A stretch of 18,425 nt of DNA from a virus. Below are positions 7,493 through 18,425 of the stretch, in pieces. Made by a program: the position numbers and the translations under genes. Under the pieces are notes generated by a model that saw nothing but the letters and a program-made list of their open reading frames with translations, was not told the origin of the DNA and searched no databases. Location: IMG/VR virus record IMGVR_UViG_3300029911_000190; one strand, given 5' to 3'. Numbering within the stretch: the first letter of the stretch is position 1; each line of letters starts with the position of its first letter.

Positions 7493-8304
7493 TTAAGGCC
7501 GAGTTACTAACCGAGACGAATGAACTCCACTTCCAGCGTATGTTGTTGTCGGCGACCTATGGCTTTCAAGAGAAGCATAACGGCCATCGGCTGATTATCT
7601 GCAAGCAGGATGGGCAACTCCGCATGTTCAATCGTGAAGGCGATCCCTCCAGCAAGGCTCTCCACCCCCGCATCAAGACTGCCCTTCTATCACACCGGCT
7701 CAGCATGTTTGTAATCGACGGTGAATTGGTCGGCGGAACCTTCTATATCTTTGACGCTCTGGTGCTCGGGGATGAAGCTATCAACAACGACGCATATGAG
7801 TATCGCGAAGCTCGGTACCACGCTGAATTCGACAATATCTCAAGTCAAATCAGTGTAGTCCCGACCGCACGGACGGCGGAAGAGAAGCGGCTCCTGTGGG
7901 ACGCAGTGCTGGCATCGCGTGGCGAGGGCATCGTCTCCAAGAACATGACCGTAAAATATACCCAAGGCATGGCGGGGGCTCACTGGAAGCTGAAATTTTT
8001 GAAGTCGGCAGAAGCTGTGGTTATAGGCCCTAGTCCAGAGGGAAAAGACAGCGTTGAGATTGGCATGTGGGACTCAAACGGTAGAATGCACCGCATCTCC
8101 GGCCTCTCGCTCCGCAATAAATACCGGGTCGCACCCGGCACTGTTTTGGAGGTTCGTTTCCTTTATGCTACGAAAGAACTTCACATCGTTCAGCCGGTAC
8201 TTGTTCGTGTACGCACCGATAAACGCGCTGCGGACTGTAAGTTAACCCAACTTGTCCCTTACATCAACAAAAATTGGGTAAAAAGCGAACTATCCCATGT
8301 TTAA
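7489..8304 (+). CDS. small ATP-dependent polynucleotide ligase (phage-type DNA ligase; unusual Asn in motif I, EKHNGHR)
   Basis: Motif I KHNGHR; downstream NREGD (SRxG-like); motif III FVIDGELV; motif IV EGIVSK; motif V WKLKFLK. A C-terminal OB-like region follows. GTG start overlaps the upstream stop (GTGA), with a ggagg RBS. Confidence 0.7.
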   Translation: MIKAELLTETNELHFQRMLLSATYGFQEKHNGHRLIICKQDGQLRMFNREGDPSSKALHPRIKTALLSHRLSMFVIDGELVGGTFYIFDALVLGDEAINNDAYEYREARYHAEFDNISSQISVVPTARTAEEKRLLWDAVLASRGEGIVSKNMTVKYTQGMAGAHWKLKFLKSAEAVVIGPSPEGKDSVEIGMWDSNGRMHRISGLSLRNKYRVAPGTVLEVRFLYATKELHIVQPVLVRVRTDKRAADCKLTQLVPYINKNWVKSELSHV

Positions 8305-10270: not shown

Positions 10271-10464
10271 GTGAGTTCACCAACGAGCGGCTACTCGACC
10301 TTGTGCGGTACATGCGTTTCCCCCTGTATGAAGCGGGGGTCATCACCGATGAAGAGTATGCGGCATTAGTCGCCGACAGCGAAAGTGGGCAACGTGTGGC
10401 TCGAATCGAAGAGTGGGACACCTTAAGAAAAAGGCTGGAGGCACAGCATGAGAAACAACATTGA
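10267..10464 (+). CDS. hypothetical protein (65 aa)
   Basis: ATGA overlap with the upstream gene. Confidence 0.5.
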   Translation: MSEFTNERLLDLVRYMRFPLYEAGVITDEEYAALVADSESGQRVARIEEWDTLRKRLEAQHEKQH

Positions 10465-11293
10465 ACAGAAATGGCCTAACCACTTCATCGTTATGCGTCA
10501 CGGGCAATCGAAGAGGAACGTTGACCGTGAGGTTGCAAAGGCTGCTGGCGGGTACGCCGACTTCTCTTCAGGCATCCGTGACCAAGACACGCCCCTGACG
10601 CCGCTAGGCGAAATGCAAGCTCTCAGCGCGGGGGTGGAGTTACGCAAGAGATTCCCCTTGAGGACAAGCCAAGTCAAGCATGACTTTGGCTGCGAGTTGG
10701 ATATGGGGGGGAGCTTTTGCTCCTGCGGCTTGTTGGAAGATGAAACACGTCTCGGCAAACCGATTGACGTTCTCTACGTCTCCCCCTACCTGCGTACCCG
10801 CCAGACCGCAAATAAATTCATTGAGGGTCTTGGTTATACGCCGGAGCATGTCATTGTGGATGAGCGTATCCGCGAGATTGAGTTCGGCTTGTTGGATGGT
10901 CTCGAACACGCCGGTATCAAGGCCAAGTACCCGGAGGAGATTGCCCGTAAGGCTAAGGAAGGTAAGTATTGGTACCGGGCACCGGGTGGCGAGTCTCGCC
11001 CTGACGTTAAACTTCGCATCCGCTCGTTTCTTGACACGGTCGTACGGGACTGCCGAGGCTTGAATGTCATGGTGATATGTCATAGCGTAGTCGTTCTCAG
11101 CTTCCGTGCAACGCTGGAGAAGTGGGGCGAAGACGATTACCTTCAAGTCGATAAAGAGAACGACGTGAAGAACGCCAGCATCACGCACTATGCCTACGAG
11201 CATGTGGGAGCATACCCCAACGGGCTCCCTCACTCGAAGCTGGTGCTCAAAGAATACAACTCAATCTTCTACGCGGAGTATGCAACTAAATAG
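10448..11293 (+). CDS. histidine phosphatase superfamily protein (phosphoglycerate-mutase-like branch) with a Cys-rich insertion
   Basis: N-terminal FIVMRHGQSKRN (RHG catalytic motif), YVSPYLRTRQTA, and VMVICHSVV (second His region). The insertion DFGCELDMGGSFCSCG follows the first motif. Confidence 0.7.
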   Translation: MRNNIEQKWPNHFIVMRHGQSKRNVDREVAKAAGGYADFSSGIRDQDTPLTPLGEMQALSAGVELRKRFPLRTSQVKHDFGCELDMGGSFCSCGLLEDETRLGKPIDVLYVSPYLRTRQTANKFIEGLGYTPEHVIVDERIREIEFGLLDGLEHAGIKAKYPEEIARKAKEGKYWYRAPGGESRPDVKLRIRSFLDTVVRDCRGLNVMVICHSVVVLSFRATLEKWGEDDYLQVDKENDVKNASITHYAYEHVGAYPNGLPHSKLVLKEYNSIFYAEYATK

Positions 11294-12956: not shown

Positions 12957-13147
12957 AGACCAATTTTCTCATCGTGCAACATCGGGTATACGGTACCCGC
13001 ACCATCGCCCGACGCGAGGACTACTCGCACTACTCCACGTACTTGATGGAGGGCAAGATAGTACCCGATGCGGTTTTCAACGGCAACTGGGAAGTTGTAG
13101 CCGACATCAATGTGAACGAGGCTACTATAGACCTCAAAAAGAGGTAA
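12953..13147 (+). CDS. hypothetical protein (64 aa)
   Basis: ATGA overlap with the upstream gene. Confidence 0.5.
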   Translation: MKTNFLIVQHRVYGTRTIARREDYSHYSTYLMEGKIVPDAVFNGNWEVVADINVNEATIDLKKR

Positions 13148-13165
13148 AAACAGAAAGGACAATAT

Positions 13166-13450
13166 ATGTCTCATTTTGCTGTAACCGTAATCGGCGAAGA
13201 ACCGGAAAAACAGCTTGCTCCCTACCATGAATTTGAATGTACCGGCGTTGACAACGAGTATGTTCAAAGTATAGATGAGGAAGCACGTGAAACGTGGAAG
13301 AGGGATGACGATGACTCCAAGAAACCCTTTTTAGAATTCCTTCAAGATTACTTAAAGAGCGGTCGGATAGGGCTTCATGGAACCCCCGGACTTCAAAGGT
13401 TAGACCCCAACTATGAACGGCCAAAGATTACGACCTGTTTGCCGATGTAG
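13166..13450 (+). CDS. hypothetical acidic protein (94 aa); ends at an in-frame TAG
   Basis: RBS aaaggacaatat. Same reading frame as the two following open segments. Confidence 0.55.
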   Translation: MSHFAVTVIGEEPEKQLAPYHEFECTGVDNEYVQSIDEEARETWKRDDDDSKKPFLEFLQDYLKSGRIGLHGTPGLQRLDPNYERPKITTCLPM

Positions 13451-13501
13451 TCAAAGATACGCCTGAAGCGTAAGATTCAGCGATTCTTCGCAGGGGAGGG
13501 G

Positions 13502-13942
13502 GTGAAGCCATTGACAAACCAATTCAGCCAATCACGATACTCGAAGGTGGATGGTCCCAAAATGATCTTATACCTGCTATTAGGTACAAGGTTACTTGCC
13601 CCGACGGATGGTACGAGTCAGCAAAAGACAACCTCTGTCACCTCTCAGGAGCCGAGAACGGCGTTGATTGACGGCGCTCCGTAGGCACCGTATCGGAGGC
13701 CGCAACCAGCACGGTGCGACATCACCTGCACCCGTTCGGAATACATTGAAAGGGCACGGCGGAAAGCAATTACTACCTTTGCACTGGTAAAAGATGGCAA
13801 GTGGTATCAGAGGGGACGTATGGGTTGGTTTGCTTGTGTTTCAGATGAAAAGGATGAAGCCGTATGGCACCGCGAGTTCTCAGACCTGTTCGATGGCCTC
13901 CCAGATAACACGCTCATTACCATCGTTGATTGCCACATCTAA
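13502..13942 (+). pseudogene. protein-like coding signal in the frame of gene 13166, interrupted only by TAG codons (13448-13450, 13682-13684). Possible readthrough/recoded or decayed gene
   Basis: Putative GTG start at 13502 behind the leader TTCGCAGGGGAGGGGG (cf. 13982-13997). The segment 13685-13942 (…FALVKDGKWYQRGRMGWFACVSDEKDEAVWHREFSDLFDGLPDNTLITIVDCHI*) is protein-like, and its only in-frame start is an ATG giving 40 aa. The +1 frame at 13474-13671 is also protein-like and contains no Met. Confidence 0.3.
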
Positions 13943-13949
13943 AAAGAAT

Positions 13950-13979
13950 TTGCAAAAACCAACTAAGACCGTCTATACT
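13950..13979 (+). promoter_or_regulatory. promoter module copy TTGCAA-N18-TATACT
   Basis: Spacer aaaccaactaagaccgtc (18). The leader cctcgcagggggaagga precedes ATG 13999. Confidence 0.55.
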
Positions 13980-13998
13980 TCCTCGCAGGGGGAAGGAC

Positions 13999-14256
13999 AT
14001 GCCTCGTAGCAACAAAGCATTTGGGTCATACCAAAGTGGCAGCGGGTGTTCTATCGAACCAGCGATACCGGCTCGGTGGGATGTTTTCCTTAAGGAACTC
14101 AACGTAACAGAAATGGAAGCTCTGACAATACTCAGGAGCCGGTCGGAATTGACACCCCGTATCCGGTCATGGGTAATGACAAACCACAGGTCAGCCTTTG
14201 TTCCTGAAGATTTCCTCATGACCTTGGGCATTCAAATGGAACTGTACGAAAACTAA
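13999..14256 (+). CDS. hypothetical protein (85 aa)
   Basis: ATG directly behind the ggaagga RBS, downstream of promoter copy P6. Confidence 0.6.
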   Translation: MPRSNKAFGSYQSGSGCSIEPAIPARWDVFLKELNVTEMEALTILRSRSELTPRIRSWVMTNHRSAFVPEDFLMTLGIQMELYEN

Positions 14257-14264
14257 CGAGTGAT

Positions 14265-14528
14265 GTGATGAGCGACCAACTTCTAACCCGAGACGAGTTC
14301 CGCGAGGGCGTATTCGCTAGAGACAGGCACACGTGTGTGAATTGTCGCAAGCCGGGAGTTGACGCTCATCACATCATGGAACGCAGACTGTTTCCTGATG
14401 GAGGGTATTACCTTTGGGAGCAGGAGAAGTACCCCATCACGGTAGACCCTCTCAATGGAGCCGGGTGCGATTACAACGCCATCATCCAAGCGGAGGAGTC
14501 CAAGCGGACGTGTGGGGATTCTAAATAA
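14265..14528 (+). CDS. truncated HNH-like protein (87 aa). N-terminal paralog of the HNH::RNA-ligase gene, lacking the second half of the HNH motif
   Basis: MMSDQLLTRDEFREGVFARDRHTCVNCRKPGVDAHHIMERRLFPDGGYY aligns with MEEPLLTRDEFRGLVLARDHNTCAHCGSSGVRLDVHHIMERRLFEDGGYR of gene 15358. The N...LCxxCH half is absent. DNA-level divergence is high, so the duplication is old. Confidence 0.6.
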   Translation: MMSDQLLTRDEFREGVFARDRHTCVNCRKPGVDAHHIMERRLFPDGGYYLWEQEKYPITVDPLNGAGCDYNAIIQAEESKRTCGDSK

Positions 14529-14532
14529 ATAC

Positions 14533-14562
14533 TAGCCAAAAGTAGGGCACTCCGGGTATACT
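14533..14562 (+). promoter_or_regulatory. promoter module copy TAGCCA-N18-TATACT, followed by an ~80-nt SD-less leader with nested inverted repeats
   Basis: Spacer aaagtagggcactccggg (18). Leader contains TGGGTA(n11)TACCCA and ttgtttcc/gaaaacaa repeats. No SD before ATG 14645. Confidence 0.6.
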
Positions 14563-14644
14563 AGGAGTATGTTGATTGTTTCCTTTGGGTGGGTAGTTTA
14601 ACAATATACCCATCTCAAGAAAACAAACTACCAAACCCATCTAC

Positions 14645-15376
14645 ATGAAAACAAAATGTGGATGTGTGGATACAGGGCAGTTTTTGCAGCTTTTTAATTC
14701 AGGGGCTCTACTTAACGAGATTGGCACAGAGCTTAATGTGAGCCAACGAACCCTGAGTCGAATCGTAAAACAACTAGGTTTGAACGCGAAGACACGCCCC
14801 AAATTTAAGGTGGCGAAGCCGTCATTAACCCGACAGGTGGGCAAAAAATATGCTTACCTCACTGTTGTTGGAACGGAGTACAACAGCCGGTTACATCAAT
14901 GGGTGCTGACCATAAAGTGCGACTGTGGTCGTATTTCTACGGAGACGGCACCCAAGCTAGTCAACGGCGACCGTAAATCTTGCGGAGTTATCGGATGCTC
15001 CTATCGTGGAGTCGTACGTCAAGAAAACGGGAAGAAAGCAGGGTGGACGGGATGCGGGGAGATTTACGGATGTAGGTGGGATCAGTGGCGAATAGGTGCA
15101 GAAAAGCGAGGATTGGCGTTCGACATCAGCATTGAATACGCTTGGGAGTTGTTTGAAAAACAAGGTCGTAAATGCGCGTTGACGGGAGAGCCGATAAGTT
15201 TTGGAAATTCGTGGAACCGAAAATGCACAGCTTCACTTGACCGAATTGACTCCGCTAAACCTTACATTGAGGGCAATGTTCAATGGGTGCAGACGCGGGT
15301 CAATTTGATGAAACGTAGTATGGATGAGGCGGAGTTCATAGAACTCTGTGGATTGATATGGAAGAACCGCTCCTAA
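14645..15376 (+). CDS. HTH + HNH (His-Me finger) homing-endonuclease-like protein
   Basis: N-terminal helix-turn-helix NEIGTELNVSQRTLSRIVKQLGL. C-terminal CALTGEPI...ASLDRIDSAKPYIEGNVQWVQTRVNLMK...FIELC resembles the phage HNH_3-type SLDRID/GY/NVxW signature. AT-richer than its surroundings. Confidence 0.65.
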   Translation: MKTKCGCVDTGQFLQLFNSGALLNEIGTELNVSQRTLSRIVKQLGLNAKTRPKFKVAKPSLTRQVGKKYAYLTVVGTEYNSRLHQWVLTIKCDCGRISTETAPKLVNGDRKSCGVIGCSYRGVVRQENGKKAGWTGCGEIYGCRWDQWRIGAEKRGLAFDISIEYAWELFEKQGRKCALTGEPISFGNSWNRKCTASLDRIDSAKPYIEGNVQWVQTRVNLMKRSMDEAEFIELCGLIWKNRS

Positions 15377-16398
15377 CTCGCGACGAATTCAGGGGACTGG
15401 TTCTTGCCAGAGACCACAATACTTGTGCCCATTGCGGCTCGTCTGGTGTTCGGCTCGATGTTCACCACATTATGGAAAGACGCCTTTTTGAAGATGGAGG
15501 GTATAGAATTTCAAATGGAATCTCACTTTGTTCAGACTGCCACGAAGCGGCGGAAGCAACCACTATTGATTGTGCAACGCTTCGTGAACGAGCAGGAATC
15601 GCAGTTCCTTGCCTCCCTCCACACTTTGAAGCAGATGGTGTGTACGATAAGTGGGGTAACGGAATCTTGCCTAACGGTCAACGACTTCAGGGAGAATTGT
15701 TTCTGGAGCCCGGAGTGCAGAAGGCTCTGCGGAACAAACTCTACCTATTCACCGACAAGGTGAAGTACCCTAAAACTTTTCATTGGCCTTCGTCCCCCGG
15801 TCTACAAAATGACGACCGGATGCACACGACCACCGACCAATGGGACGGGTTGGAAGTCATCGTTACCGAGAAGCTTGATGGAGAGAATACCACCATGGCA
15901 CGGGATTATATGCACGCCCGGTCGTTGGAATTTAGCACTCATCCATCTCGCACTTTCATAAAAGCAATCTGGTCTCGGGTTGCCCACGACATCCCTGAAA
16001 ATTTCAGAGTCTGCGGCGAAAATGTCACAGCGGTTCATTCCATCGAGTACCATGACCTCGCCTCCTACTTCTATGTGTTCAACATCTGGCATGGGCAGAA
16101 CTGCCTGTCATGGGATGACACCGAGACCTATGCCGGTCTACTGGACCTGCCCACCGTGCCGGTTCTATACCGGGGTGTGTGGGAGGAAGGGCTGATAGAT
16201 AGCATCGCCAGCGGTCTTGTACCTGAGCGGCAAGAAGGACTAGTCTTCCGTCCCACACGAGGATTTACTCTGAGGGAGTTCCCCCGGCTTATGGCTAAGT
16301 GGGTGAGGAAGGGACATGTGCAAACCGATGAGCATTGGATGAGCCAGCCTGTAAGGTTCAACCACCGCCCACACAGAGGAGGAAGTAGATGGGGATGA
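15358..16398 (+). CDS. HNH endonuclease :: ATP-dependent RNA ligase fusion (KxDGxN nucleotidyltransferase)
   Basis: N-terminal full HNH (CAHC...DVHHIMERR...NGISLCSDCHE). C-terminal nucleotidyltransferase motifs: I TEKLDGEN (Asn, not Arg, after DG, as in Rnl2/3/5 RNA ligases); III FRVCGENV; IIIa YFYVFNIW; IV EGLVFR; V AKWVRKGH. Overlaps the upstream gene by 19 nt. Confidence 0.7.
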   Translation: MEEPLLTRDEFRGLVLARDHNTCAHCGSSGVRLDVHHIMERRLFEDGGYRISNGISLCSDCHEAAEATTIDCATLRERAGIAVPCLPPHFEADGVYDKWGNGILPNGQRLQGELFLEPGVQKALRNKLYLFTDKVKYPKTFHWPSSPGLQNDDRMHTTTDQWDGLEVIVTEKLDGENTTMARDYMHARSLEFSTHPSRTFIKAIWSRVAHDIPENFRVCGENVTAVHSIEYHDLASYFYVFNIWHGQNCLSWDDTETYAGLLDLPTVPVLYRGVWEEGLIDSIASGLVPERQEGLVFRPTRGFTLREFPRLMAKWVRKGHVQTDEHWMSQPVRFNHRPHRGGSRWG

Positions 16399-16577
16399 TT
16401 AGGCGACTCGATGAGTGGTGGGCTATCTGCTACAAAGACGGAGCTATAGCGTGCGATGACCGAGGACAAGGTCATTTCTATTTCAGCAGACGCGAGGCTC
16501 GTATGGCGATGCGCGGTGCCGTAGAGGAGCATGGGGCGGTTCTGCATATTAAAAAGGTGGCTGTGGAGTTCAGGTAA
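16389..16577 (+). CDS. hypothetical protein (62 aa)
   Basis: aggagg located 7 nt upstream; overlaps the stop of the ligase gene. Confidence 0.5.
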   Translation: MGMIRRLDEWWAICYKDGAIACDDRGQGHFYFSRREARMAMRGAVEEHGAVLHIKKVAVEFR

Positions 16578-16586
16578 TCCTGCGCC

Positions 16587-16618
16587 CTCACCGCACAGCG
16601 GATCAACTAACGCATCAC
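16587..16618 (+). promoter_or_regulatory. conserved intergenic element, copy A: CTCACCGCACAGCGG-N8-ACGCATCAC
   Basis: Directly after a stop codon and ~45 nt upstream of the gene at 16648. Has a near-identical copy at 16912-16948. Confidence 0.4.
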
Positions 16619-16647
16619 AGCTAGCGCCGATGGCGCGGGGGAGAACG

Positions 16648-16911
16648 ATGACGAGCGATCAAATATTTGCAGTGTTTAAGGACTGGGATACGCCGACGCC
16701 AGAATGCGCGTCGAGGGTGTTGACGAGTCCGAGCAGTTCACCAGAAGCCAGTAACTTTCGGCTCAATCTCGAAATAGCCTACCAGTTGGCGCTGCTAAAC
16801 GAGCAGATCGGCTGTGTGCTCAACACCCGCATTGCTCAAATCGCGGTGAGGGTGGAGTCTGGGGAGTATCCACTGCAAGTGCAGGTACAGGAACCACAAC
16901 GGCGTTACTAA
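16648..16911 (+). CDS. hypothetical protein (87 aa)
   Basis: RBS gggggag. The ORF track start at 16531 lies inside the upstream gene. A GCGCC-gat-GGCGC hairpin precedes the RBS. Confidence 0.55.
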   Translation: MTSDQIFAVFKDWDTPTPECASRVLTSPSSSPEASNFRLNLEIAYQLALLNEQIGCVLNTRIAQIAVRVESGEYPLQVQVQEPQRRY

Positions 16912-16948
16912 CCTCCACCGCACAGCGGGCCGGGAGCACACGCATTAC
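16912..16948 (+). promoter_or_regulatory. conserved intergenic element, copy B: CCTCCACCGCACAGCGG-N11-ACGCATTAC
   Basis: Directly after a stop codon and ~50 nt upstream of the gene at 16987. A CCGTC-tcag-GACGG hairpin follows. Confidence 0.4.
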
Positions 16949-16986
16949 GCAACCGCCGTCTCAGGACGGGCGAAAGAGGTGAGGGA

Positions 16987-17628
16987 ATGGAATTCAGTTT
17001 CGATAGTAGGTTTGATCTTGGCGCAAACATGCCCAACTTCGATGAAGCGGCGGTGAAGGATGAGCCTATGCTATTTCGGTGTCAAGTCTCTAAGGCGCGG
17101 GAACTCGGAGGTCCAATCACCCGCGCTTTCTTGGATGCGGTCGGGGACTGGGGCACGGAAGGCAATATCGATTCTCGCGTCCACATGCTGATGCCGGGGT
17201 GGTATCCGTGCATCCCCGGATGGCACCATGACGATGTGCCGCGTTCTAGGTCTGACGGACAGCCTGATTACGTGGACCCCAAGTATCATGCCCGACACGT
17301 CATGGCGCTAATCAACGGCGATATATGCCCTACGCAGTTTGCAGTTGGGAAGTGCGAGATGCCTGATGTGCCGCTCGGTGGAACGATCTACCAAGTGTGG
17401 AATGATGAGGTTGAACGGCAAGTCAGGGACGGGAGGCTGTCATGTTCGGACGTGCCGTCTAATCAACTCGTATTCTTTGATGACTACAGCTTCCATCGTG
17501 GCGCAGTGGCGGTTCGGCGGGGATGGCGCTGGTTTGGACGACTCACCATCGGGACAGGTGTGAAGCCGAAGAACGAAGTGCGCAGACAGGTTCAGGTATA
17601 CATGCCAGTGCCGACGCAGGGCTGGTAG
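16987..17628 (+). CDS. cupin / 2OG-Fe(II) oxygenase of the aspartyl/asparaginyl beta-hydroxylase (AspH) type
   Basis: LMPGWYPCIPGWHHDDVP resembles the AspH LxPGxxIxPHxGxxN region. VFFDDYSFHRGAVAV resembles the AspH FDDSxxHExxN region (second Fe ligand). RBS gaaagaggtgaggga. Confidence 0.6.
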   Translation: MEFSFDSRFDLGANMPNFDEAAVKDEPMLFRCQVSKARELGGPITRAFLDAVGDWGTEGNIDSRVHMLMPGWYPCIPGWHHDDVPRSRSDGQPDYVDPKYHARHVMALINGDICPTQFAVGKCEMPDVPLGGTIYQVWNDEVERQVRDGRLSCSDVPSNQLVFFDDYSFHRGAVAVRRGWRWFGRLTIGTGVKPKNEVRRQVQVYMPVPTQGW

Positions 17629-17658
17629 GCACACGCTAACCCCACCACAGGAGGAGCA

Positions 17659-18174
17659 ATGAGCAAACTGACGCAGGAGCAGGACAAATTACAGGATCGG
17701 CAGATTTGGGAAGCGCAGTCACTTTTGCGGGTGTGGGGATGTGGGCCGACGAATAACAGGATGATTACTGAGCCTGTGTCGCTTGTGGAGCGGATGCTGG
17801 TAGCATTCAGCCAACACAGGCATAAGGCGCGGCAGATCGACGGCATGACCGCAGCCCTGAACGTGGCGCTGGGTGAGGCGTTGGGGCCGGTGACCGCCGA
17901 TGAAGAGGAGCCATATTGGTACAACAGGAGTATTGAACTAATCAATGCTTTCCTCAAGTCTCGTCGCTCCCGTCTCCCCGCGCCGGTCGAGAGGGTGACG
18001 GTGACATTTTACGATGCAGAGCCTACGCCTTATTGGCAGGTGTCTCTCGATGGCAAACACATCGGGCCGCGCTTTCCCGTCACTGGCTATCAGGTGGACG
18101 CCGAGCGCTACGCAGCCGGTCTCCGTGCCGAGATTGCGGACCAAGCGCGTGCAGCGGGAGGCGGGAAGAAATGA
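17659..18174 (+). CDS. hypothetical protein (171 aa)
   Basis: RBS aggagg located 5 nt upstream. GC-rich codon usage like its neighbours. Confidence 0.65.
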   Translation: MSKLTQEQDKLQDRQIWEAQSLLRVWGCGPTNNRMITEPVSLVERMLVAFSQHRHKARQIDGMTAALNVALGEALGPVTADEEEPYWYNRSIELINAFLKSRRSRLPAPVERVTVTFYDAEPTPYWQVSLDGKHIGPRFPVTGYQVDAERYAAGLRAEIADQARAAGGGKK

Positions 18175-18425
18175 CCGATCGCATTCAGGCAGCGCAGACA
18201 GACGAAGAGTATGTAAGAGCGCGGTGGCAGCGAGTCCAGTACGCTGAAACAGGACTCACTGGCGCTGGACCGTGCTACGTGACTATAAACGCAGGTGATC
18301 ACCCAACCGCAGGCAGCACGATCTTTATGGAGCATGGTCCGACGAAGGAAGCCGTGTTCTCAGCCGCCGCAGAGCCCACACGCCAGCGCGAACGCGAGAT
18401 TGCGGAACTGCGGGAAGAGATCAAA
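18171..18425 (+). CDS. hypothetical protein, 5' partial (runs off the window end)
   Basis: ATGA overlap with the upstream gene. The frame stays open to the last base. Confidence 0.5.
   Translation, partial: MTDRIQAAQTDEEYVRARWQRVQYAETGLTGAGPCYVTINAGDHPTAGSTIFMEHGPTKEAVFSAAAEPTRQREREIAELREEIK

Follow-up and report, generated by a model that had tools for sequence, protein, structure and literature searches.

The stretch of DNA analyzed here, which we call the window, is the complete 18,425-nucleotide (nt) sequence of the IMG/VR virus record IMGVR_UViG_3300029911_000190. Our subject is a run of three open reading frames (ORFs) on its plus strand, between positions 14265 and 16398, that a preliminary description of the sequence had presented as a cluster of HNH-related genes. 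All three lie where that description placed them: a short ORF of 87 amino acids (ORF87), a gene of the free-standing homing-endonuclease type (gene 2), and a gene in which an HNH module is fused to an RNA-ligase-type nucleotidyltransferase (gene 3), whose start overlaps the end of gene 2 by 19 nt. As set out below, this arrangement is probably best explained by the invasion of a resident HNH::RNA-ligase gene by a foreign 5' allele of that gene carrying the endonuclease gene, ORF87 being the stranded original start. The features and their parts are as follows.

14265-14528, plus strand: ORF87, 87 amino acids.
14265-14417, plus strand: relic within ORF87, made up of the 51 codons with which the resident ligase gene originally began (native start kept), cut in the HNH motif after DGGYYL.
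14418-14644, plus strand: left part of the inserted block, comprising the 36-codon ORF87 tail (TAA at 14526-14528) and a 116-nt spacer; guanine-plus-cytosine (GC) fraction 0.476, like gene 2.
14645-15376, plus strand: gene 2, 243 amino acids, free-standing homing-endonuclease type; predicted helix-turn-helix (HTH) at about residues 10-43, a Cys-rich beta domain, and a PacI-like His-Me-finger domain at about residues 140-240.
15358-16398, plus strand: gene 3, 346 amino acids, complete chimeric HNH::RNA-ligase gene, identified from Pfam, phrog_24030, AlphaFold, Foldseek, and conserved catalytic residues.
15358-15545, plus strand: 5' segment of gene 3 that is of foreign origin, covering codons 1-63 or more, with its right boundary bracketed at 15540-15730 and GGY-RIS-NG at the relic breakpoint.

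The sequence from 14265 to 16592 is base-for-base identical in at least eight contigs that come from independent assemblies (JGI, ENA, and Logan) of different samples, and therefore neither the fusion in gene 3 nor the partial copy upstream of it is an assembly or frame artifact; the sequencing-frame error that the preliminary description had held open for the fusion is thereby ruled out. It is true that the DNA is of metagenomic origin and that a neighboring 1.7-kb presence/absence polymorphism reveals a heterogeneous population, from which an assembler might have built an apparent duplication out of two co-occurring strains, but with this identity among independently assembled contigs and with the same layout in unrelated lineages (see below) we give such a chimera practically no chance. 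Megablast of positions 13000-17000 against GenBank phages returned zero matches, so that there is no close cultured relative among them.

The HNH module of gene 3 covers residues 1 to 130, with its core at 23-65 and a conserved DKWGN...GELF extension, and the RNA-ligase nucleotidyltransferase domain covers approximately residues 133 to 335, with the motif I lysine, K172, encoded at nt 15871-15873. Both halves are recognized by Pfam, the first as HNH (PF01844, residues 23-65, E 6.6e-8, 33.0 bits against a cut-off of 21.4) and the second as RNA_ligase (PF09414, residues 166-316, E 2.1e-31, 109.8 bits against a cut-off of 27). In an alignment of 50 homologs, four residues of motif I (KLDGEN), namely K172, D174, G175, and E176, are invariant, and so are E221/N222, E293/G294/V296/R298, and K314/V316/R317, motifs III, IIIa, IV, and V being conserved as E221/N222, F238/F241, E293-G-x-V-x-R298, and K314-x-V-R317. 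Likewise, none of these homologs departs from C23, C26, H37, N53, and C58 of the HNH part, and conservation of H36 and H62 is 90% or higher; gene 3 also carries C61, and its HNH part thus possesses the CxxC...CxxC zinc ligands together with the catalytic His/Asn/His residues. The complete HNH motif and the fused C-terminal nucleotidyltransferase that the preliminary description had read from the letters are therefore both real.

The AlphaFold model of the gene 3 protein (mean confidence score, pLDDT, 92.4) was matched by Foldseek about equally to the nucleotidyltransferase domains of Rnl5, Rnl3, and Rnl2 (E 1e-6 to 1e-5, 16 to 22% identity). All but one of the 31 best matches are RNA ligases, the exception being a putative Aquifex ligase, and characterized DNA ligases scored about 100-fold weaker, in agreement with the RNA-ligase-type assignment made earlier; the sole match in a PDB sequence search was the HNH domain of IscB. 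Judged from the model, the C-terminal domain is RNA-ligase-like, with a fold that does not separate Rnl2, Rnl3, and Rnl5. The nucleotidyltransferase fold and motifs I, III, IIIa, IV, and V are common to gene 3, T4 Rnl2, Naegleria and Deinococcus Rnl5, and archaeal Rnl3 (2hvq, 5cot, 5d1o, and 8uce), but gene 3 lacks the C-terminal domain of Rnl2 as well as the dimerization and C-terminal domains of Rnl3. With Rnl5 it shares an appended N-terminal module and the lack of a C-terminal domain, the module being HNH in gene 3 and not the Rnl5 N-domain. The literature groups HNH-fused proteins with "Rnl2" (PMC7824862); the C-terminal domain past motif V that defines the Rnl2 subfamily and is needed for nick sealing is absent from gene 3, in which 28 residues (K318 to G346) follow motif V and the model contains one short helix (325-329).

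The preliminary description had called this fusion unusual, and in this it was mistaken. The "RNA ligase" family phrog_24030 matches gene 3 with an E value of 5.3e-105, aligning residues 5-335 to positions 3-338 of a 342-position profile, and a search of 5.8 billion proteins gave 5983 matches at E<=1e-5; the best 120 of these are, except for a few truncated entries, about 335 to 350 residues long at about 96% query coverage, and many of them sit on contigs of 100 to 900 kb. Full-length homologs with 41 to 51% identity, labeled "RNA ligase" or hypothetical, occur in the cultured jumbo phages Salicola SCTP-2, Ralstonia RsoM2USA, Caulobacter CcrSC, CcrBL9 and relatives, and Acinetobacter ME3. HNH-fused Rnl2-like RNA ligases of jumbo phages have been in print since 2021 (Iyer et al., Viruses 13:63, PMC7824862), the relevant passage of that paper citing Burroughs and Aravind (2016) for them. 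Gene 3 thus belongs to a family that is widespread and very common in jumbo phages, with thousands of members and a known architecture. The jumbo-phage proteins of phrog_24030 have the same N-terminal HNH plus PF09414 organization and the same length (about 335 to 350 residues), and what distinguishes the gene 3 copy from those of cultured phages is that it is recombinant, with a 5' segment from another allele. As far as the literature examined shows, no member of the HNH::RNA-ligase family has been characterized biochemically. The gene 3 protein is presumed to be an RNA-repair or counter-defense enzyme; the break-and-rejoin activity proposed in the preliminary description is speculative. The HNH module lies C-terminal to the ligase at one related locus (L023) and in a separate nearby gene at another (L018), which argues for functional coupling of the two predicted activities.

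We turn next to ORF87, the first 49 residues of which are 65% identical to those of gene 3 (32/49, E 3e-18) and match positions 2-48 of phrog_24030 (E 4.7e-15). ORF87 has CxxC...HH, that is, half of the zinc site and of the beta-beta-alpha fold, and diverges from gene 3 after DGGYY(L); none of the three reading frames beyond 14417 carries the HNH motif on, so that rescue of ORF87 by a frameshift was rejected. The relic is closer to the endonuclease-free relatives of gene 3 than is the start of gene 3 itself: at the amino acid level it is 80 to 82% identical to the closest of them, P0002, P0004, and P0006, as against 60 to 70% for the N terminus of gene 3, and for P0002 the values over the first 49 aligned residues are 80% and 60%, respectively. 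The same holds for DNA. At three endonuclease-free loci (L031, L034, and L035), the first 135 or so nt of the ligase gene match positions 14279-14415 at 74 to 83% identity, and gene 3 is matched only from 15546-15615 on, its own 5' end giving nothing with the 5' ends of these genes at the BLAST threshold used. In a sliding scan of the first 150 nt or so, ORF87 was 67 to 88% identical to endonuclease-free relatives, compared with 50 to 74% for the 5' end of gene 3, and its identity to these relatives was similar to the identity among them. The tail of ORF87 has no homolog among 120 ligase proteins or the fetched loci other than in the same phage. As judged by this orthology, the 5' end that the resident ligase gene originally had survives, displaced, as the first 51 codons of ORF87. 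The earlier view of ORF87 as a possible relic with half an HNH motif can therefore be kept, while its origin as a paralog by local duplication cannot, its DNA matching the gene starts of relatives.

That codons 1-51 of ORF87 are nearer to endonuclease-free relatives than is the start of gene 3 implies that gene 3 is a chimera, and the protein itself bears the mark of it. Identity to P0002 is 60 to 62% in the 5' segment and 94 to 100% over residues 101-250. The first 100 residues are nearest to P0011, P0008, and P0010 (68 to 69%), a different clade, and residues 101-346 are nearest to P0002 through P0006 (80 to 93%). The ratio of N-terminal to C-terminal identity is lowest for gene 3 (0.65 to 0.76, against 0.75 to 1.03 among relatives), and a two-residue "RL" insertion in gene 3 is absent from ORF87 and from P0002 through P0006. 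Base composition changes at the same places, with a GC fraction of 0.479 in the block from 14418 to 15545, compared with 0.536 in the relic and 0.531 in the rest of gene 3, and with 0.484 in the 5' segment of gene 3 taken separately. The 5' part of gene 3 is thus foreign in character and the remainder resident, which is the co-conversion of flanking target sequence seen with homing endonucleases; on these sequence comparisons the first 60 to 120 codons or so would have come with the endonuclease gene, as part of approximately 1.1 kb of foreign DNA. The preliminary description had called gene 2 AT-rich, and its GC content is indeed in the lowest 3% of size-matched windows, although the departure is modest (47.8%, against 52.3% for the window).

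Gene 2 shows sporadic presence and absence at a fixed site in related genomes. The closest ligase relatives with readable context are P0002 (84% identity), P0004 (79%), P0005 (75%), and P0006 (74%), P0003 having been left out since its upstream gene (278 amino acids) is cut by the contig end, and none of these four has a gene 2-like gene upstream of the ligase. Among 80 fused-ligase loci surveyed in IMG/VR, a gene of this type was found at one (L197, on the same contig as L050) and was absent from 79. Conversely, a full ligase gene adjoins in 8 of the 80 best gene 2 homolog loci (L046 to L050, L052, L063, and L114), and these 8 take in six of the seven top-ranked gene 2 homologs; at a ninth (L051), what lies downstream is no more than an HNH-like segment, and in the other 71 there is no ligase or HNH-module match nearby. 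Two closer homologs, with 61% and 58% identity (L044 and L045), lie directly upstream of a ligase gene. Within a large and otherwise dispersed endonuclease family, a single sublineage is thus bound to the start of the ligase gene, and gene 2 is an insertion, as the preliminary description had supposed when it took the middle gene for an invading homing endonuclease of the free-standing type.

Five divergent lineages share the layout of relic, endonuclease gene, and ligase gene, the relic measuring 51 codons in the window, about 41 in L046 to L049, about 35 in L114, 19 in L045, and 8 in L044. Every relic has an intact Met, an LL(T/S)RDxFRE start, and a frame that is open to the junction, and each ends at a different point; the tails are unrelated, and two of the relics reach stop codons almost at once. 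No second N-terminal copy was found at the endonuclease-free loci of the IMG/VR survey. These observations bear on whether ORF87 could instead be a functional small paralog, a regulator or dominant-negative HNH module that arose by duplication and has been kept by selection. Its start codon is preserved and its frame stays open for 87 codons, it is identical across many assemblies, and analogous upstream fragments exist in the other lineages. However, these fragments end at five different points between 8 and 51 codons, with their unrelated and sometimes immediately terminated tails; ORF87 has only CxxC...HH followed by a tail without a homolog; its DNA is orthologous to the gene starts of relatives and not copied from gene 3; and its identity between assemblies reflects one phage population and is uninformative on selection. 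We therefore consider a selected small paralog very unlikely. In one of the five lineages (L045, positions 3068-4575), the 19-codon relic lies upstream of the endonuclease gene and the ligase downstream has no HNH module, which the insertion appears to have replaced or deleted.

A further link between gene 2 and the start of gene 3 is provided by the sequence at the relic breakpoint. Endonuclease-free alleles mostly read GGYY-L[DENSA]-NG at this point, compared with GGY-RIS-NG in the window and GGY-IVS-NG in L044, and among the best 120 homologs the sole other variant allele is that of P0009 (RVS), at locus L206. In a blind prediction from this allele, L206 was found to hold a frameshifted endonuclease remnant (54% identity over residues 135-243, E 9e-32) that has the same 19-nt overlap with the start of an intact ligase gene. 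The variant allele is thus linked to the endonuclease in three of three cases, which indicates that the 5' segment of the ligase gene travels with the endonuclease gene, and L206 is the expected decay stage of an endonuclease copy. A separate clade of endonuclease-associated ligase N termini was sought and rejected, as overall identities do not separate them and the short breakpoint motif alone does.

Gene 2 might also be no selfish element at all and instead a partner of the ligase, co-transcribed and translationally coupled with it, either as a DNA-binding regulator or as a nuclease that makes its substrate. The tight juxtaposition of the two genes, whose stop and start codons overlap, is conserved in at least eight lineages, including the ligase-only gene of L045, gene 2 gives weak PHROG matches to Srd anti-sigma and sigma-70 decoy families, and its product is without the canonical catalytic His. 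Against such a partnership, about 99% of ligase loci lack gene 2, including those of the nearest relatives whose context is readable, most of its own best homologs (the 71 of 80 mentioned above) have no ligase or HNH module nearby, the copy in L206 is frameshifted beside an intact ligase, and relics together with a chimeric flank are what a mobility event leaves behind; a partnership is accordingly unlikely in our view.

In the protein encoded by gene 2, the Cys-rich beta domain contains C92, C94, C113, and C118, and the nuclease domain contains the motif SLDRIDS...N211...N220, in which D199, R200, N211, and N220 are invariant among 37 homologs, with Arg at the position of the canonical HNH catalytic His, which is thus missing. 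PHROG endonuclease and HNH families match the C-terminal half (1.5e-21 to 9e-15), GenBank relatives are labeled "HNH endonuclease" or "endonuclease", and only weak HTH signals were seen in Pfam; the nuclease fold belongs to a known homing-endonuclease class (His-Me finger/HNH). This supports an HTH plus His-Me-finger nuclease-like protein at the level of predicted fold, catalysis not being assured by the motif. The earlier HTH-HNH assignment thus stands for the HTH and the His-Me-finger fold and fails for the canonical His and for a Pfam HNH match. Membership in the DHHRN/Endo VII-motif (F-CphI) family, defined by a central DHDH between CX2-4C and CX2C (PMC6083498), was considered and rejected, as the nuclease domain of gene 2 contains LDRID and no Cys other than C177.

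Several features claimed for the expression of gene 2 fared less well. A Shine-Dalgarno sequence is indeed absent before the gene, but the "strong promoter" corresponds to a site at 14533-14562 that scores 9/12, at chance level (two such sites found against 2.7 expected from shuffled sequences), and the "structured leader" does not fold significantly better than chance (z -1.6). Self-splicing, which had been suggested as well, left no sign in Rfam: no family reaches the gathering threshold in the window, no recognizable ribozyme of the kind that a group I intron-borne gene would have was found around the gene 2 ORF, and a permissive search (E<=1) of 13350-14700 gave a single chance-level match to a long noncoding RNA. 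This is pertinent to a split gene in which the 5' part of ORF87 would serve as exon 1 and be rejoined after removal of a group I intron or an intein-like element. Introns of phages often carry ORFs for HNH endonucleases, the relic breaks off inside a conserved motif, and an intein-like insertion occurs in the same gene family (in L114); still, besides the Rfam results and the leader fold, a start of its own is present in gene 3 and the family profile matches it from end to end, so that splicing is not needed, and a spliced product would have a duplicate N terminus. We regard such rejoining as extremely unlikely.

The comparisons above establish the presence/absence polymorphism, the chimeric nature of gene 3, the orthology of the relic, the recurrence of the layout, and the association of the endonuclease gene with one particular 5' allele. 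They lead us to favor the invasion introduced at the outset, in which an endonuclease-bearing foreign 5' allele entered a resident HNH::RNA-ligase gene, and we infer its cleavage site, its one-sided repair route, and the enzymatic activities of both proteins along the following lines. Gene 2, from the sublineage specialized on the ligase 5' end, would have entered with the first 60 to 120 codons or so of a foreign allele, its product having cut an endonuclease-free allele in the conserved HNH-coding core, near codons 50-62. On the right, the break would have been repaired by homologous copying from the donor ligase gene, and on the left by illegitimate joining upstream of the donor endonuclease gene. 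Codons 1-51 would thereby have been stranded as ORF87 (14265-14417), with a frame running into 36 unrelated codons, followed by the foreign DNA from 14418 to about 15545 (spacer, endonuclease gene, new ligase start, and 5' segment) and then by the resident remainder. The ligase would remain whole, since the element brings along a new 5' end for it, and the finding that all relics have 51 codons or fewer fits a cut near codons 50-62 with variable resection.

A number of points weigh against this interpretation. Besides having no canonical HNH His and no Pfam HNH match, gene 2 gives only weak Foldseek matches, and its product could be catalytically inactive and mobilized in trans. The donor genome for 14418-14644 was not found among the fetched loci; the right breakpoint is bracketed by the sliding scan to 15540-15730 and no closer. 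The HNH module evolves faster than the ligase domain throughout the family, so that the mosaic signal at the protein level is clear and not dramatic. Three loci (L050, L052, and L063) have the endonuclease-ligase pair with no detectable relic, and the different relic lengths could come from erosion after one ancient event rather than from repeated events. Finally, the RNA-repair role of gene 3 is wholly inferential.

One-sided homing with illegitimate double-strand-break repair has been established experimentally in T4 (Parker, Belisle, and Belfort 1999, as treated in the pertinent section of the review PMC2988022). In the intronless homing of T4 SegF, SegG, SegB, and MobE, just as here, a free-standing endonuclease gene adjoins its target and is sporadically distributed, and in one-sided T4 homing the flank of the target is co-converted to give a chimeric gene, with homology on one side and a nonhomologous junction on the other. 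In contrast to T4 intronless homing, the present locus keeps an in-frame, stranded 5' end of the target, a footprint that recurs in five natural lineages, and the nuclease is a PacI-like His-Me finger with Arg for the canonical His, the T4 comparators being GIY-YIG or canonical HNH enzymes. A second parallel is the insertion of mobE into nrdA of Aeromonas phage Aeh1, the "genes-in-pieces" ribonucleotide reductase (Friedrich et al. 2007, as cited in the same part of PMC2988022), where a free-standing HNH-type gene likewise sits inside a useful coding region and function is spared. In Aeh1, however, nrdA is split and two polypeptides reassemble, whereas here there is one complete polypeptide and the upstream piece is redundant.

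It is tempting to speculate that the endonuclease lineage is a composite mobile unit, made up of an endonuclease and a cleavage-resistant replacement 5' segment, and that the arrangement reflects a recurrent strategy and not a one-off repair accident, although we hold this broader proposal only tentatively and think it rather doubtful. If true, such a unit would land in a useful coding region without an intron or intein, a complete ORF being restored downstream, the stranded relics may serve as an upstream homology arm in later homing, and the cleavage site is predicted at codons 50-62 or so, in the HNH catalytic core of the target.

Other observations were made at these loci and elsewhere in this phage. 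At L023 (5974-8238), the permuted ligase::HNH protein has 361 residues and is followed by a 392-residue ORF that by eye has the look of an HD phosphohydrolase plus kinase, a candidate RNA end-healing partner. In L114 (3635-6640), an intein-like sequence splits the ligase homolog right after motif I (KMDGEN|CLDGETLITT...), with about 2 kb of extra DNA that includes an ORF at 5239-6285, and the ligase domain picks up again at about 6392; selfish elements seem to be drawn to this family of ligase genes. Immediately downstream of gene 3, a 1706-bp segment at 16593-18298 (GC 0.575), with ORFs at 16987-17628 (phrog_1843) and 17659-18174, is absent from the same-phage contigs L032, L036, L037, L038, and L041, and two contigs (L039 and L043) contain its start, ending at 16869, with a junction overlap of 5 nt; the presence of this segment next to the ligase is thus polymorphic. 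About 5 to 9 kb past the end of the window, with this indel allowed for, the same phage (L036, 17133-20732) has a TnpB-like gene (OrfB_IS605/Cas12f1-like_TNB, 385 amino acids) and a PARP-domain gene of more than 500 amino acids.

Upstream on the plus strand, a DNA-ligase-like nucleotidyltransferase gene (7411-8304; DNA_ligase_A_M, E 1.4e-13, with a subthreshold RNA_ligase match) and a His_Phos_1 histidine phosphatase gene (10448-11293, E 1.1e-28) are syntenic with L031, L044, and L206, and their products may be nucleic acid repair partners. An ORF of 851 residues (761-3316, plus strand) carries the Major Vault Protein domains MVP_shoulder (PF11978, E 4e-23, residues 548-652) and Vault_3 (PF17795, E 3.9e-10, residues 494-536), has no PHROG match, and is unexpected in a jumbo-phage contig. 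The phrog_10079 gene at 13166-13942 (plus strand, E 7.4e-43) has in-frame TAG codons at 13448-13450 and 13682-13684; read through, it would give 258 residues against a 344-position profile in two separate matching stretches, one of them C-terminal on positions 271-344, and it looks like a decayed pseudogene, identical in many assemblies. Amber (TAG) recoding was considered and set aside, since stop codon usage (TAA 18, TGA 8, and TAG 4, one of the TAGs with a TAA one codon on) gives no clear signal.

Taken together, the locus is an instance of a known protein family and a new, well-documented, and clean instance of a known mobility process. As the fusion has already been cataloged, it carries little weight as a discovery in itself, although gene 3 is a clean representative of its enzyme family. 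The locus and the five or six related ones form a natural record of a free-standing homing endonuclease invading a coding region, one that holds a chimeric target, a stranded start, an allele at the presumed cut site that moves together with the endonuclease, and, in another phage, a copy in decay, and that offers a concrete prediction of the cleavage site along with natural substrates. They also carry a warning for annotation, namely, that short "paralogs" beside homing endonuclease genes can be displaced gene ends.

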